Shown: in pieces, positions 2,704 through 10,559 of the stretch
Layout of the letters: every line of letters starts with the position of its first letter
Numbering within the stretch: position 1 is the first letter of the stretch
The notes under the pieces: model-generated
The model's input: the letters and a program-made list of their open reading frames with translations, nothing else
The model's database searches: none
What the model was told of the DNA's origin: nothing
Virus genome (UHGV): UHGV-0018629
Length of the DNA: 64,000 nt
Strand: one strand, 5' to 3'
Origin: a virus
Position numbers and translations under genes: made by a program

Positions 2704-3241
2704 TTACTATTTCCAAAAGTTTATTATTTTTAAGGTAATTAGCCTTTTCTAGGACTTCAGAAGCATATTTAGAACCTGCTTTAACATTCCATCCCGAATT
2801 ATAAGAGGATATTGCTTTTCTTATATCACCCTTATGTATATTTAACCAATAAGAAAGTTCAATGTACGCCCATGAAGCTGAATTGGATCGTTTATTCAAC
2901 ATTCTTTTTATTTCAGCATCGGTCATATTATAACCAAGTTCCTTAACTCTTGCTCGCATAGTAGGCAAATAATTTTGGAACATTCCATAAGCGTGATGCT
3001 TTGGTTTAGATTTTAAATTAACTCCGCCAGAGCTTTCTTGCCATAAAATGGCTGCCATTATATGACCTAATCCACTCTTATGAACATTTTGGTGTGTTTT
3101 ATATTTTCCATCCTTAGAAAATTGTTCCCCGAATTGATATGCGTAACGCATGTTATCGAGTTGGACATTACTGAAAGTATGCTCGGAGCTATGTGCCATC
3201 ATAGAAATGGCCAATAGACCAGCGAGTAGTGCTTTTCTCAT
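2696..3241 (-). CDS. Secreted lytic transglycosylase-like protein (vs.1 position)
   Basis: 181 aa, signal peptide, QESSGG...AYGMFQ resembling SLT-domain ES and GLMQ motifs. Confidence 0.55.
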   Translation of the reverse strand: MRKALLAGLLAISMMAHSSEHTFSNVQLDNMRYAYQFGEQFSKDGKYKTHQNVHKSGLGHIMAAILWQESSGGVNLKSKPKHHAYGMFQNYLPTMRARVKELGYNMTDAEIKRMLNKRSNSASWAYIELSYWLNIHKGDIRKAISSYNSGWNVKAGSKYASEVLEKANYLKNNKLLEIVND

Positions 3242-3710: not shown

Positions 3711-3769
3711 ATTATTCTCCTCTTAACTGATAGAAAAATTATACCACAGTCAAGAGGAAAAGTAAACAG

Positions 3770-4090
3770 TTATTCTTTAAATCTGATCAATTTATTCATA
3801 GACTTTGAAACTTCTGCACGAACCTCATGTAGATTTTTGAGCTGCTCAAGACGCTGCGCATAGTAAGCAATTTCATCTTCTTCAAGACAGTCCTGCGAAT
3901 CTTCTTTAAGATAGCGTGCATAATCCTGGAAAGCATTACGAATTACTTCTTGGAAGTCGTCAAGACTTTGAATTTTCTTAGGAGCGGAAGATACACGACG
4001 AGGTACAGTATAATACTCATAACCAAACCCTGCGCTTAATTGAGCCATTAATATTTTTCCTCTGGTTGGAACACAGCACGGCAAGCCCAC
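3770..4090 (-). CDS. Hypothetical protein (start may be at internal Met near 4048)
   Basis: ORF in regB-downstream block. Confidence 0.4.
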
Positions 4091-4314
4091 ATACTTGCTT
4101 CTTTGAGTTTCGTTTTAGCAATAGTTAACTGATCGAGACTTTCGGCATAATTCTTCGCGAGTTCATCATCTTCACAGCTATCAAATGCTTCCCAAAATTC
4201 ATCATATAAAGCATCAAAGATAAGTCCTAAACGAACTTCAGCATCTTTAATAGCATTTACTTTACCGATTTTCTCTTCAGTATGTGGCTTATAACCTTTA
4301 ATATCTTCAATCAT
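4048..4314 (-). CDS. Hypothetical acidic protein
   Basis: 88 aa ORF. Confidence 0.4.
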
Positions 4315-4528
4315 ATTTGACTTCCTCGCCAGTACCTAAATCATATTCAACTAAACGAATAGGTTCATGAATACCATATCCCTGAACAGAAATTTCTGTC
4401 GTAGGATAAATTCCATCAATATCACCCATGTTCCACGCTTCGTTAAATTGCTGTTCGCCTGAATTACTAAACCACTCGGCGAAAGCATTTAGCACATCTT
4501 TAGAACCTTCAATAATTATCTTTGCCAT
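4307..4528 (-). CDS. Hypothetical protein
   Basis: 73 aa ORF, ATGA-type overlaps with neighbours. Confidence 0.4.
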   Translation of the reverse strand: MAKIIIEGSKDVLNAFAEWFSNSGEQQFNEAWNMGDIDGIYPTTEISVQGYGIHEPIRLVEYDLGTGEEVKYD

Positions 4529-7107: not shown

Positions 7108-7682
<575 letters not shown>

Positions 7683-8138
7683 TTAAAAGAGGCTGTTCAT
7701 TATTCGGTAAAGTGAAGGGCCCATCACATATTGCCACTGAGTACGAGGAATAAGAGCAAAAGCGTCCATCTCTGGAATCATAACGCCATCTTTATTTTCA
7801 AAATAAGACTCGCAATGGCAATTTCTGAACATCTCATGCTCTACTGGAATCGTATAATAAAATAACTGTAAGTCTTTATTACTAGAATATTTAAATACAC
7901 CTAAGTCTTCTAGAAGGTCTGGATTATAATTGCTAAAACCAGTCTCTTCTAAGCATTCTCTTCGTGCTGCATCTAATGCGCTTAAATCGGAATTTTCTAC
8001 ACGGCCTTTTGGAATATCCCAGCGATGTGCCATCATTCCAGGCTTACGAGAACCAGTAACTCGTCCCATAAATAAATCTTTATCTTCCGTCATAAAGATA
8101 ATACCAGCTGATAATGTTTTCATTTTAATTTCCTGCAT
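7683..8138 (-). CDS. nudE: Nudix hydrolase
   Basis: 151 aa; Nudix box GRVENSDLSALDAARRECLEETGF; position after e. Confidence 0.85.
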   Translation of the reverse strand: MQEIKMKTLSAGIIFMTEDKDLFMGRVTGSRKPGMMAHRWDIPKGRVENSDLSALDAARRECLEETGFSNYNPDLLEDLGVFKYSSNKDLQLFYYTIPVEHEMFRNCHCESYFENKDGVMIPEMDAFALIPRTQWQYVMGPSLYRIMNSLF

Positions 8139-8623
8139 TCTGTGATAAAGTTATTTAAATTTTGAGTATATTTCTTTTCATCAAAAATCTTTTGCTGCCT
8201 GCGTAACCGCCATGGCATTTCGATGAACACGCACCATATTCCTGATAGTATTGCTGCTGTAAAAATATTAACAAGTATGATTAAAAGAATCCAATCTCCC
8301 GTTCTGCCTACTGGACTTTCTCCAAAGAAGCAAAATACAAATGATGTCACAGGAAGACTAATAATATACCACAGAATCATAATCTTATCTGTGAACCAAT
8401 CAGCGTTCGTTAACTTAGCGCGACCATTATGAATACACACGAATTTATCATCTGTTATAATAGATGGCTTAACTGCTTGATATCCCATTCTAAACTCCCT
8501 AATTAATCGTTTCTTTGTATCTTCGGAACAGCCACTCCAATCAACTCTATCAACTGAAATGCCATCGTCCCCATCATCTAAATCATACCAGCGAGTTTTT
8601 AAAATCATTTGATTTTCCTGCAA
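8120..8623 (-). CDS. Small membrane protein, paralog 1 (2 predicted TM helices; C-terminal ITECRKLK)
   Basis: Hydrophobic segments ILWYIISLPVTSFVFCFF and ILLIILVNIFTAAILSGIWCVF; start may be the MILKT Met at 8608. Confidence 0.5.
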   Translation of the reverse strand: MQENQMILKTRWYDLDDGDDGISVDRVDWSGCSEDTKKRLIREFRMGYQAVKPSIITDDKFVCIHNGRAKLTNADWFTDKIMILWYIISLPVTSFVFCFFGESPVGRTGDWILLIILVNIFTAAILSGIWCVFIEMPWRLRRQQKIFDEKKYTQNLNNFITECRKLK

Positions 8624-8967
8624 TCACTCACGAATTCTTTCATTGATTCATTTTCAATATAAGACATGTAGCTATTGTATTCTTTTAATTGTATTTTGTA
8701 ATCCTTTTTTCTTTGCCAATTTATTTTAAAATTATCATAATGAAAAAATAGCATGGTACCAAAGAATGAAAATAATGAAATCGCTATAGTAAAACGAAGT
8801 TCACTCCAAACATCTGTTATAATTGCTGAACTATCGATGTTTAAAATAATACAGTCAATCATTAATCCAATAAGACTACCAGCAAGAGCTGCAGCCAACG
8901 CCACAGCAAGAATTAATAGCGCCTCGGGAAACGAATATTTGGCTTTATTTAGTTTTGGCTTTTGCAT
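8605..8967 (-). CDS. Small membrane protein, paralog 2 (C-terminal EFVSDCRKIK)
   Basis: 120 aa; TM segments ALLILAVALAAALAGSLIGLMI and FTIAISLFSFFGTMLFF. Confidence 0.5.
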   Translation of the reverse strand: MQKPKLNKAKYSFPEALLILAVALAAALAGSLIGLMIDCIILNIDSSAIITDVWSELRFTIAISLFSFFGTMLFFHYDNFKINWQRKKDYKIQLKEYNSYMSYIENESMKEFVSDCRKIK

Positions 8968-9362
8968 CGTGATTCCTTAACAAATTTCATAATTTCATTA
9001 AATTCATACATATCTAGCTTAAGCTGGTGTTCCTTTTTAATCTTTTTACACTGAGCTTTCCATTCACGTACGCGTTTACGATAATGTCTTCCTTGATACC
9101 AGTATCCTACCCAATTTATAGGTACTAATAAAAATGGAACTACAAATGGAAGAATTAATACGAACAGAAATATTAAGCCAGATTCAATATCAGTCATAAA
9201 GTCTATAACCATTCCAACAATCAATAGAATTACAAATGATATAGCTGTCACAGGACCTATTAATATATCAGTAGGAATTAGCTGGCGCTTTAATTCATAC
9301 TTCACAGGTTTACTTGGAAGGTATAGTGATGGCTTTGACATATTCTCTACATTCCTTAACAA
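8949..9362 (-). CDS. Small membrane protein, paralog 3 (C-terminal KFVKESRCK)
   Basis: 137 aa; two strongly hydrophobic helices. Confidence 0.5.
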   Translation of the reverse strand: MLRNVENMSKPSLYLPSKPVKYELKRQLIPTDILIGPVTAISFVILLIVGMVIDFMTDIESGLIFLFVLILPFVVPFLLVPINWVGYWYQGRHYRKRVREWKAQCKKIKKEHQLKLDMYEFNEIMKFVKESRCKSQN

Positions 9363-9924
9363 ATTTTTCTAATAATAAATCGCTTTCAAAATTGGGATTT
9401 TCCACGAATTTATCAAAAAGATCATCAACAATAGTTAAGATATTCTTTTTGCTAAGAATACGTTTATTTTCATGCTTTGTTTCAGAATCAACTATAAGAG
9501 TAAAGAAATATTTCTTTCCCTGAAATTTTACCGTAGTATCAATATAGAACAAATTTGACTTTTGTAAATTACGTTTAAACCATGCGTCACTTAAACTATA
9601 AACGCCAAGATAATCATAATCGTCATTTAAATAACAAACTGTCCATTCAGGAGAAATGAAATCAGTAAATTCAACATCAAAATCACATGTCAATGAATGA
9701 ATTGATTCAATACTTTTAATGAGTATTCCAGGACGTATTAAAGACTTTTTACCTCTAGAAAATCTTCCGGAAAGGCTTTCATCAGTTTCATACGAAGACC
9801 CCCAATAGTAATTACGTCCTTCTGCCATGCGTTTAAGAGCATTTAGTAATTGGTCTGGAACATCAACCTGTCTTTGGAACTCTTCAAACATTGAATTGAA
9901 ATCACTTTGCATTTTCATTTTCAT
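9310..9924 (-). CDS. Hypothetical soluble protein sharing the C-terminal KFVKECR motif
   Basis: 204 aa ORF; C-terminus overlaps start of next gene. Confidence 0.5.
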   Translation of the reverse strand: MKMKMQSDFNSMFEEFQRQVDVPDQLLNALKRMAEGRNYYWGSSYETDESLSGRFSRGKKSLIRPGILIKSIESIHSLTCDFDVEFTDFISPEWTVCYLNDDYDYLGVYSLSDAWFKRNLQKSNLFYIDTTVKFQGKKYFFTLIVDSETKHENKRILSKKNILTIVDDLFDKFVENPNFESDLLLEKFVKECREYVKAITIPSK

Positions 9925-9942: not shown

Positions 9943-9960
9943 ATAGGGGCCGAAGCCCCT
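9943..9960 (-). other. Stable UUCG-tetraloop hairpin (ggggc-ttcg-gcccc on minus strand) downstream of the coiled-coil gene
   Basis: Sequence aggggccgaagcccct; identical hairpin recurs at 51931..51948 after hoc. Confidence 0.5.
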
Positions 9961-9965
9961 TATCA

Positions 9966-10559
9966 TTATTTCAGAGAATTAATGTATTCCTGAACATCGG
10001 CAGAGGTAGTTTCAACCCCGGAAATATTACCGTTAAAGGTTTCAACTCGAGCAAGGGTATCTTCAATATCAACCTTAGTCAGCGCTGCAATTTCAACTAC
10101 ATCATCGGCAGTACTAATTCCAAGGGCATTTGCTGCACGAGTTTCACGGATATATTCCAATTTAACTGCAAGTTCTTGGCGAGCATCATCTAACTCAACT
10201 ACTTTCTTAGCAATTTCAATTCGCATTTCAGCATAACCGTCAGCCTTAGTAGTCAACTGCTCAGCTGTTCGACGATATAGTAAACCGAGTTTAGCATGCA
10301 TTGTTACATCTTGACCTTCGGAAAGAAGTTTACGAATTTCACGCTCTTTTGATTCAGCCTGTCGATTCTTTTCGACAATAAGTTCACGAATACGTTTTTC
10401 TTCATTAATAGATTTAACAGAAGCAGTTTTTAGATCTTTAATTTTATCAAGTAGTTTTGCTGCAGCAGCAGTATACTGTTCTTCAACAGATAGATTTTTA
10501 GCCATAGCAGAACCAAGTTTAGTGCGAATAAACTCAACAATTTTCTTCAGTGTGTTCAT
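9966..10559 (-). CDS. Coiled-coil protein, possibly PspA/IM30-like
   Basis: 197 aa, long heptad-rich helices with charged repeats; family assignment is from architecture only. Confidence 0.4.

Follow-up and report, generated by a model that had tools for sequence, protein, structure and literature searches.

Why do four consecutive, overlapping genes of a bacteriophage encode proteins that end in nearly the same short peptide? The question is raised by the minus strand of a 64,000-nucleotide stretch of the virus genome UHGV-0018629 (hereafter, the window), where four open reading frames (ORFs) located between positions 8120 and 9924 share a C-terminal motif of the general form F(I/V)xxC(R/K). 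A sequence-only reading of this DNA interpreted the four genes as a tandem array of paralogous small membrane proteins in which gene duplication had copied the gene junction and the motif together. Comparison with related phages indicates that the tail is an old feature, maintained at the protein level, and that the many proteins that bear it, found in at least 10 T4-like lineages, are not homologous to one another. To the reading that these genes encode interchangeable early accessory proteins sharing a cytoplasmic docking helix, with the product of the adjacent gene e.6 as the candidate partner, we give about an even chance.

The window is a part of a Tequatrovirus (T4-like) genome with the minus-strand gene order ipIII, e (lysozyme), nudE/e.1, e.2, e.3, e.4, e.5, e.6, e.7, e.8. 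The four consecutive overlapping ORFs are indeed present, and a megablast search combined with the GenBank annotation identifies them with e.2, e.3, e.4 and e.5 of T4 (msp7 to msp4 in the old T4 record L13089), which are located between nudE/e.1 and e.6. The search started with this locus retrieves 505 phage records, mostly with 90–95% identity, many Tequatrovirus genomes showing about 91–96% DNA identity, and e.2–e.5 are annotated in PP01, RB55 and T4 L13089; the high identity and the kept order nudE-e.2-e.3-e.4-e.5-e.6 in Tequatrovirus establish the orthology of all four genes. The first gene after e.6 is e.5 (9310..9924, minus strand, 204 amino acids (aa), PHROG 2607), a soluble protein without transmembrane segments (TMs) that has the tail ...LLLEKFVKECREYVKAITIPSK. 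It is followed on the same strand by three genes for two-TM proteins, namely e.4 (8949..9341, 130 aa, PHROG 2604, tail ...EIMKFVKESRCKSQN, with Ser in place of Cys), e.3 (8605..8967, 120 aa, PHROG 2330, tail ...SMKEFVSDCRKIK) and e.2 (8120..8608, 162 aa, PHROG 2203, tail ...NLNNFITECRKLK). Thus, the four proteins match four separate PHROGs families, with E-values from 1e-57 to 1e-110, and the Pfam family PF26876 corresponds to e.5. The TTG starts initially assigned to e.2 (8623) and e.4 (9362) are likely too far upstream, relatives being annotated with ATG starts (8608 and 9341, respectively), and the C-terminal strings initially quoted for these two proteins' counterparts e.4 and e.5 do not coincide with the actual protein ends, which are ...KFVKESRCKSQN and ...KFVKECREYVKAITIPSK, respectively.

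The motif [FW][IVL]xxC[RK] occurs exactly three times in the window (about 86 genes, 19,938 aa), in each case within the last 17 residues, namely in e.2, e.3 and e.5. Among 2000 shuffles, the mean number of occurrences in the last 25 residues is 0.0345 and the maximum is 1, so that a chance origin of the tail motif is ruled out. The tail of e.4 is a variant, FVKESRC. On the minus strand, the motif codons occupy positions 9346..9363 in e.5 (FVKECR, residues 188–193), 8967..8984 in e.4 (FVKESR, residues 120–125), 8617..8634 in e.3 (FVSDCR, residues 112–117) and 8132..8149 in e.2 (FITECR, residues 154–159). The consensus of the tail, [LIF]-[END]-x-F-I-[KE]-[ED]-C-R-K, displays a hydrophobic face that consists of positions -3 (L/I/F), 0 (F), +1 (I/V) and +4 (C), and the tail is predicted to form a cytoplasmic amphipathic helix. 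In the e.4-like subfamilies, the Cys position is occupied by I, V, M or S, which indicates that the Cys is a hydrophobic residue of the helix face rather than a reactive one; a catalytic or metal-binding role of this residue is rejected on the same grounds.

Is it the peptide or the underlying DNA that is conserved? In the window, the motif coincides with the ribosome-binding site and the start codon of the next gene, as the sequence-only reading had noticed. The peptide might accordingly be functionless, with the similarity imposed by a pure DNA or RNA constraint at the junction that involves the Shine-Dalgarno sequence, the spacer, the ATGA overlap and, perhaps, a recombination linker. Each downstream Shine-Dalgarno sequence (AAGGAA or AGGAAA) does lie within motif codons in the window, e.g., AAGGAA within the e.4 motif serves e.3, and AGGAAA within the e.3 and e.2 motifs serves e.2 and nudE, respectively; furthermore, the junctions are DNA repeats at which recombination occurs. 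However, a survey of about 50 loci, which provide 121 different DNA contexts for the motif, reveals that the codons at the conserved residues vary freely. The Cys codons are TGT in 61 contexts and TGC in 60, and the Arg codons are AGA (34), CGT (33), AGG (23), CGC (10), CGA (9) and CGG (1), that is, 57 AGR codons and 53 CGN codons, the latter being unable to serve as a Shine-Dalgarno sequence. The register varies as well: the motif R/K is followed by 0 to 22 residues, and the ATG of the next gene is found at -7 to +77 nucleotides (nt) from the motif. Even among the four genes of the window, the residues whose codons contain the Shine-Dalgarno sequence differ, being K-E in e.5 and e.4 and C-R in e.3 and e.2, with the peptide unchanged. 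The free codon use and the variable register imply that selection maintains the tail at the level of the protein rather than the DNA; thus, the condition under which the sequence-only reading would have been refuted, namely that the C-terminal similarity reflects nothing more than a nucleotide constraint at the junction, is rejected by the codon data, and a functionless peptide is scarcely probable.

The tail is present at all sampled loci anchored by e.6. This sample consists of 34 loci from IMG/VR, records of Mosigvirus, Gaprivervirus, Dhakavirus and one Klebsiella phage, the loci of two Aeromonas phages, and three additional lineages. The bearers of the tail include soluble e.5-like proteins of 154–273 aa, many two-TM subfamilies and small soluble proteins of about 95 aa; when the strict and relaxed forms of the motif are counted together, there are about 3 to 6 motif-bearing genes per locus. 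The genes that follow e.6 in the two Aeromonas T4-like phages encode soluble, TM-less proteins with the tails FVDYCRR, FIKKCRG, FVRKCRD and FIKECRK (positions 7630-8421 of locus L044 and 7649-8824 of locus L046). The existence of these soluble bearers implies that the tail is not tied to membrane proteins. A scan of IMG/VR with the back-translated FIKECRK-stop pattern identifies four T4-like contigs. A fifth match, in an unrelated 222-kb contig, looks like a chance occurrence given that no listed ORF of 60 aa or longer, on either strand, includes it.

Which of the four proteins in the window are membrane proteins, and how are they related to one another? Kyte-Doolittle windows reveal two TMs in each of e.2, e.3 and e.4, and the charge distribution fits the positive-inside rule, with K/R-rich termini and short loops that contain 0–1 K/R and 2–3 D/E. 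These three proteins are therefore predicted to be inner-membrane hairpins with both the N-terminus and the C-terminus in the cytoplasm (N-in/C-in). As judged by hydropathy and charge, they share a common architecture that consists of the cytoplasmic N-terminus, TM1, a short acidic loop, TM2, a basic juxtamembrane stretch, a helix and the tail. The initial description of the first three genes of the array as encoding a short N-terminal region followed by two hydrophobic helices holds for the helices in all three proteins but fails for the N-terminal region of e.2, which consists of about 75 aa and is predicted to be soluble. The label of a membrane protein does not apply to e.5, which contains no hydrophobic helix and belongs to a separate soluble family that has only the tail in common with the others. 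The AlphaFold2 (AF2) model of e.5, with a mean predicted local distance difference test score (pLDDT) of 59, includes a C-terminal helix (residues 183–198) that bears the motif, and the only fold relatives of this protein are uncharacterized e.5-like phage proteins. Among the Tequatrovirus orthologs, the TMs and the loop show 6.5–25% non-consensus residues per site, compared with 0–7% in the cytoplasmic parts overall and 1–7% in the cytoplasmic N-termini, the juxtamembrane helices and the tails. The most variable part of e.3 among Tequatrovirus isolates is the periplasmic loop (residues 41–56), where a 4-residue indel polymorphism (RSNV) is found.

The relationships between these families become apparent when the tail is removed. 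An hhalign comparison of the tail-less e.4 and e.3 profiles yields a probability of 85.7% (P 5.5e-6) over 28 columns that cover TM2 and the juxtamembrane region and include a shared I-N-W, compared with 0.11 for the reversed control; these two proteins are probably true paralogs. The corresponding comparisons of e.4 with e.2 (P 0.008) and of e.3 with e.2 (P 0.05) remain at the control level. The similarity of e.2 to e.3 and e.4 is limited to the last 17–18 columns and the topology, and BLAST clustering unites the three only when the tail is included; given the architecture and the tail, e.2 is possibly a paralog of e.3 and e.4. In hhalign comparisons of e.5 with the membrane proteins, only 10–17 tail columns align (P 5e-4 to 4e-3). 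The e.5-like proteins form a divergent family of their own across genera, in which the T4 type and the Klebsiella type match with a probability of 97%, and, by these profile comparisons, e.5 is not a paralog of the membrane proteins. Thus, the tandem paralogous array that was originally proposed is reduced to the probable e.3/e.4 pair, with e.5 linked to it by the tail only and e.2 by the tail and topology only; PHROGs keeps even e.3 and e.4 in separate families. Likewise, the proposal that duplication copied the junction and the motif together is valid for the junction DNA, which is duplicated in the window, but not for the motif overall, considering the different codons, the variable register and the non-homologous bearers.

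Searches of Pfam, NCBIfam and PDB with the e.2–e.6 sequences yield only sub-threshold noise. Homologs form 45 clusters for e.3 (all at least 73% identical), 14 for e.5 and, among 1.84 billion representatives, 12 for e.2; none of these clusters lies outside T4-like phages and none is informatively named. The four genes have long been known as hypothetical T4 ORFs, and in the databases they appear as hypothetical or predicted membrane proteins or under spurious names. Misleading product names are spreading in GenBank, e.g., ‘DNA primase’ and ‘sulfurtransferase’ for e.3, ‘phosphoserine phosphatase’ for the stretch that covers e.4, and ‘host specificity protein’ for e.6.

The topology and the kinship of e.3 and e.4 beyond the tail would also be expected if these were independent small membrane effectors, involved, for instance, in superinfection exclusion, evasion of membrane defence or modulation of transporters, in which the tail is only a structural juxtamembrane helix, ancestral in origin, that lies on the inner leaflet or stabilizes the hairpin and has no shared partner. 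This explanation is doubtful, albeit a real possibility. The two-TM, N-in/C-in topology, the fast-evolving loop and TMs, the variable copy number and the dispensability of these genes all fit it, and PHROG 2203 (e.2), labelled ‘membrane protein’, is assigned to the category ‘moron, auxiliary metabolic gene and host takeover’. A role confined to the hairpin, however, does not explain why the same tail is found on TM-less proteins, which include, besides the e.5 family, the proteins of about 95 aa and three proteins encoded by Aeromonas phages, and the strict adjacency to e.6 described below is left unexplained as well. In addition, the acidic residues in the tail are unlike those of known membrane-targeting helices.

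What, then, could be the partner of the tail? Genomic context points to e.6 (9966..10559, minus strand), a conserved 197-aa coiled-coil protein. The first gene downstream of e.6 bears the strict motif in all of the approximately 45 e.6-anchored loci. There are 2–5 copies of the strict motif within 6 kb downstream of e.6, compared with a single copy in all the upstream flanks of about 6.6 kb. The pair of e.6 and a tailed gene is present in both Aeromonas phages examined and in three further lineages. In Aeromonas phage 31, this pair is found in clearly different surroundings, beside nrdD and endonuclease VII, and the neighbors in ZPAH1 are mostly unannotated. Conversely, in RB49, a T4-like phage, no e.6 is detectable, and the tail is found in none of the 492 ORFs over 122 kb spanning all early regions. 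The AF2 model of e.6 is a long helical hairpin (pLDDT 76). None of the 42 homologs of e.6 matches PspA_IM30 (PF04012), and a PDB profile search started with e.6 identifies only Vipp1, with weak E-values of 1.3–2.8; a PspA/Vipp1-like nature of e.6 is no more than suggested. The envelope-stress module formed by PspA with PspB/PspC can be invoked as an analogy only.

From these observations, we infer that the tail could be a common protein-docking module, which would join a variable, exchangeable collection of accessory proteins, some anchored in the membrane and others soluble, to a single partner that they share in the cytoplasm. Among the candidates for this partner, e.6, encoded immediately upstream, is the best. 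Under this scheme, the tailed proteins would be constant at the cytoplasmic end and variable at the end located in the membrane or the periplasm; the fast-evolving TMs and periplasmic portions would then provide specificity, probably for components of the host envelope.

Early-type promoters precede e.8, e.7 and e.6, and in the window there is no promoter before e.5 and no promoter-like site at the e.5–e.2 junctions. Transcription of the e.2–e.5 genes thus probably results from read-through that starts at the early promoters located before e.6, e.7 and e.8 and, given the lack of a promoter before e.5, the four genes together with nudE are most simply viewed as one early unit with coupled translation. 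On the minus strand, e.5 and e.4 overlap by 32 nt, e.4 and e.3 overlap by 19 nt, and the e.3/e.2 and e.2/nudE overlaps are ATGA; these overlapping starts and stops suggest translational coupling. A GGGGC-UUCG-GCCCC hairpin is located on the minus strand between e.6 and e.5 (9943..9963) and, lacking a T-run on the coding strand, is more likely to be involved in RNA stability or processing than to be a terminator.

This arrangement is also compatible with the possibility that the four proteins assemble into a single hetero-oligomeric complex of the inner membrane, held together by a coiled-coil bundle of the C-terminal helices, with the stoichiometry determined by translational coupling. The start/stop overlaps extend throughout the array, the members probably form one transcription unit that lacks internal promoters, and the hydrophobic pattern of the tail is heptad-like. 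Nevertheless, we consider such a complex quite unlikely given that related phages vary widely in both copy number and membership, each locus containing about 3 to 6 motif-bearing genes, that single members are cleanly lost while others are retained, and that e.2 is broken in T4.

The proximity of the array to the endolysin gene e (at most 1.5 kb) suggests yet another function, namely that of holin- or antiholin-like lysis regulators resembling class II holins. The predicted two-TM, N-in/C-in topology and the charged, basic C-terminus are in line with this possibility. Against it, no holin family is matched in Pfam or NCBIfam at E <= 1 or in PHROGs at E <= 0.01, and the context suggests that the genes are transcribed as part of an early unit. 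The genomes of T4-like phages encode a holin of their own, t, at another location, as annotated in RB49. In Aeromonas phage 31, the tailed gene beside e.6 encodes a soluble protein, and the approximately 7 kb that follow e.6 contain no called lysozyme gene. Altogether, a role in lysis appears very unlikely.

If the tail is conserved as a protein feature, what is the significance of the duplicated DNA at the junctions? Each tail contains the Shine-Dalgarno sequence and the start of the next gene, and as a consequence the junctions form short direct DNA repeats. An exact 16-mer, AAATTTGTTAAGGAAT on the coding strand (repeat family D7), is found both at the e.5/e.4 junction (9351..9366) and at the e.4/e.3 junction (8972..8987), whereas any repeated 16-mer at all appears in only 3 of 2000 shuffles. 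The e.3/e.2 junction (8571..8625; TGCAGGAAA..AAATGA and the first e.2 codons) and the partner e.2/nudE junction (8087..8140), which represent families D3 and D4, are alike over about 55 nt at 77–86%, and the similarity reaches the initial codons of the genes that follow. Specifically, a 21-nt repeat (8120-8140 vs 8605-8625) shows 86% identity, and an adjacent 22-nt repeat (8087-8108 vs 8571-8592) shows 77%. In nudE, an in-frame upstream ATG yields the N-terminus MQEIKM..., and the matching site before e.2 is TTG CAG GAA AAT CAA ATG (LQENQM; 8120-8140 vs 8605-8625). The duplicated junction thus also offers alternative N-terminal extensions, and in relatives nudE is annotated with either start (146 or 151 aa).

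Comparison of related loci reveals gains and losses of single genes precisely at these repeats. In PP01 and in one IMG/VR locus (L011), e.2 is missing, and the e.3/nudE junction matches the e.3/e.2 junction of the window on the left and the e.2/nudE junction on the right. The crossover is located inside the shared TGCAGGAAA, and e.3 in these phages ends with ...CRKLK, the e.2-type end. In two Gaprivervirus loci (L019 and L021), the e.4-like gene is missing, with the crossover in the repeat that encompasses the Shine-Dalgarno sequence and the ATG, and the e.5-like tail is chimeric. Altogether, e.2 is absent in about 60 of the approximately 500 Tequatrovirus records. In T4 and RB55, e.2 consists of two pieces, a 102-aa ORF and a short ORF, e.2b, in which the tail is retained (positions 3888-4375 of locus L002 and 2927-3235 of locus L003); the reference phage thus harbors a disrupted e.2. 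Judging from these alignments, the junction repeats are recombination sites at which exact one-gene insertions and deletions occur; homologous recombination between the repeats would add or remove exactly one gene in frame.

Combining the docking and the exchange, one may think of the LxxFIxxCR tail as a plug-in docking peptide with which T4-like phages would place rapidly exchangeable effectors, both inner-membrane and soluble ones, on an invariant coiled-coil scaffold, e.6, which itself may be a membrane-binding, BAR- or PspA-like protein, the whole being a hitherto unrecognized modular system that acts on the host envelope, with the DNA of the plug doubling as an in-frame recombination site through which phages would swap effectors. 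In this complete form, the scheme is unlikely.

Several considerations weigh against the view of the tail as a docking helix for e.6. The link to e.6 rests on synteny and a single negative-control genome, that of RB49, and because the genes belong to one variable region, their co-location could stem from shared history rather than function. The hydrophobic positions of the tail number only about four, and acidic residues are present as well, which makes it hard to assign a binding mode, and the Cys is lost in the e.4 subfamily. The weak model of e.5 does not distinguish a free tail from one packed on the body of the protein. The variable copy number, together with the disruption of e.2 in T4, implies that single members are dispensable in the laboratory. 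Finally, a literature search by gene name and topic (e.2–e.6, nudE, T4 ORFan and early genes) found no paper on the function of these genes.

The same locus in relatives of the window harbors a second tandem family, which consists of 3–5 consecutive genes for soluble proteins of 65–100 aa that end with ...G(A/G)WVSSSxxC-stop. These genes are located between an e.3-like gene and a gene for a DUF7277/DUF7275 protein of about 318 aa (e.g., 3731-4525 in locus L006, 3691-4712 in L008 and 2828-3622 in L014; also L016-L043 and L052-L054). Tequatrovirus genomes, including the window, lack this family.

How does the exchange of tailed genes compare with known systems? In the variable regions of T4-type genomes, modular shuffling is mediated by promoter-early plus stem-loop (PeSL) cassettes (PMC2839356, PMC4122927), in which short repeats flank single accessory ORFs, so that homologous recombination cleanly excises or inserts one ORF (PMC2839356). 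The gain or loss of one ORF between flanking repeats, here e.2 and the Gaprivervirus e.4-like gene, is the common feature. In contrast to the PeSLs, which are intergenic and regulatory, the repeats in this array are coding and comprise the C-terminal tail, the Shine-Dalgarno sequence and the start codon, with no intergenic space or promoter. The flanking early promoter and stem-loop that define a PeSL are absent at these junctions, the sole stem-loop being located upstream of e.5. Since the repeat is coding, recombination must stay in frame and generates chimeric tails, such as that of e.3 ending with ...CRKLK.

With respect to the proteins, e.2–e.4 resemble T4 Imm and other small superinfection-exclusion proteins in being small, early, inner-membrane proteins with two hydrophobic helices that are encoded in an accessory region. 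Nonetheless, none of the e.2–e.5 proteins matches the Imm family in Pfam or PHROGs, and Imm is not known to bear this tail or to form tandem arrays. Superinfection exclusion or modulation of host envelope functions, offered as a speculation in the sequence-only reading, may be among the roles of these proteins. Three features appear to be new, namely the sharing of one tail by proteins that are not homologous, the linkage of this tail to e.6, and the exchange of single genes in frame, no description of these features having been found in the literature searched.

About half of the T4 genes lack a known function, and many of these encode small early membrane proteins in variable regions. Within this group, a 10-residue cytoplasmic tail marks otherwise unrelated proteins and ties them to one neighbor, e.6, which provides a testable handle on a set of orphan genes. 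At the DNA level, the coding junction repeats represent a second route of modular exchange in T4-type genomes, in addition to the intergenic PeSLs.

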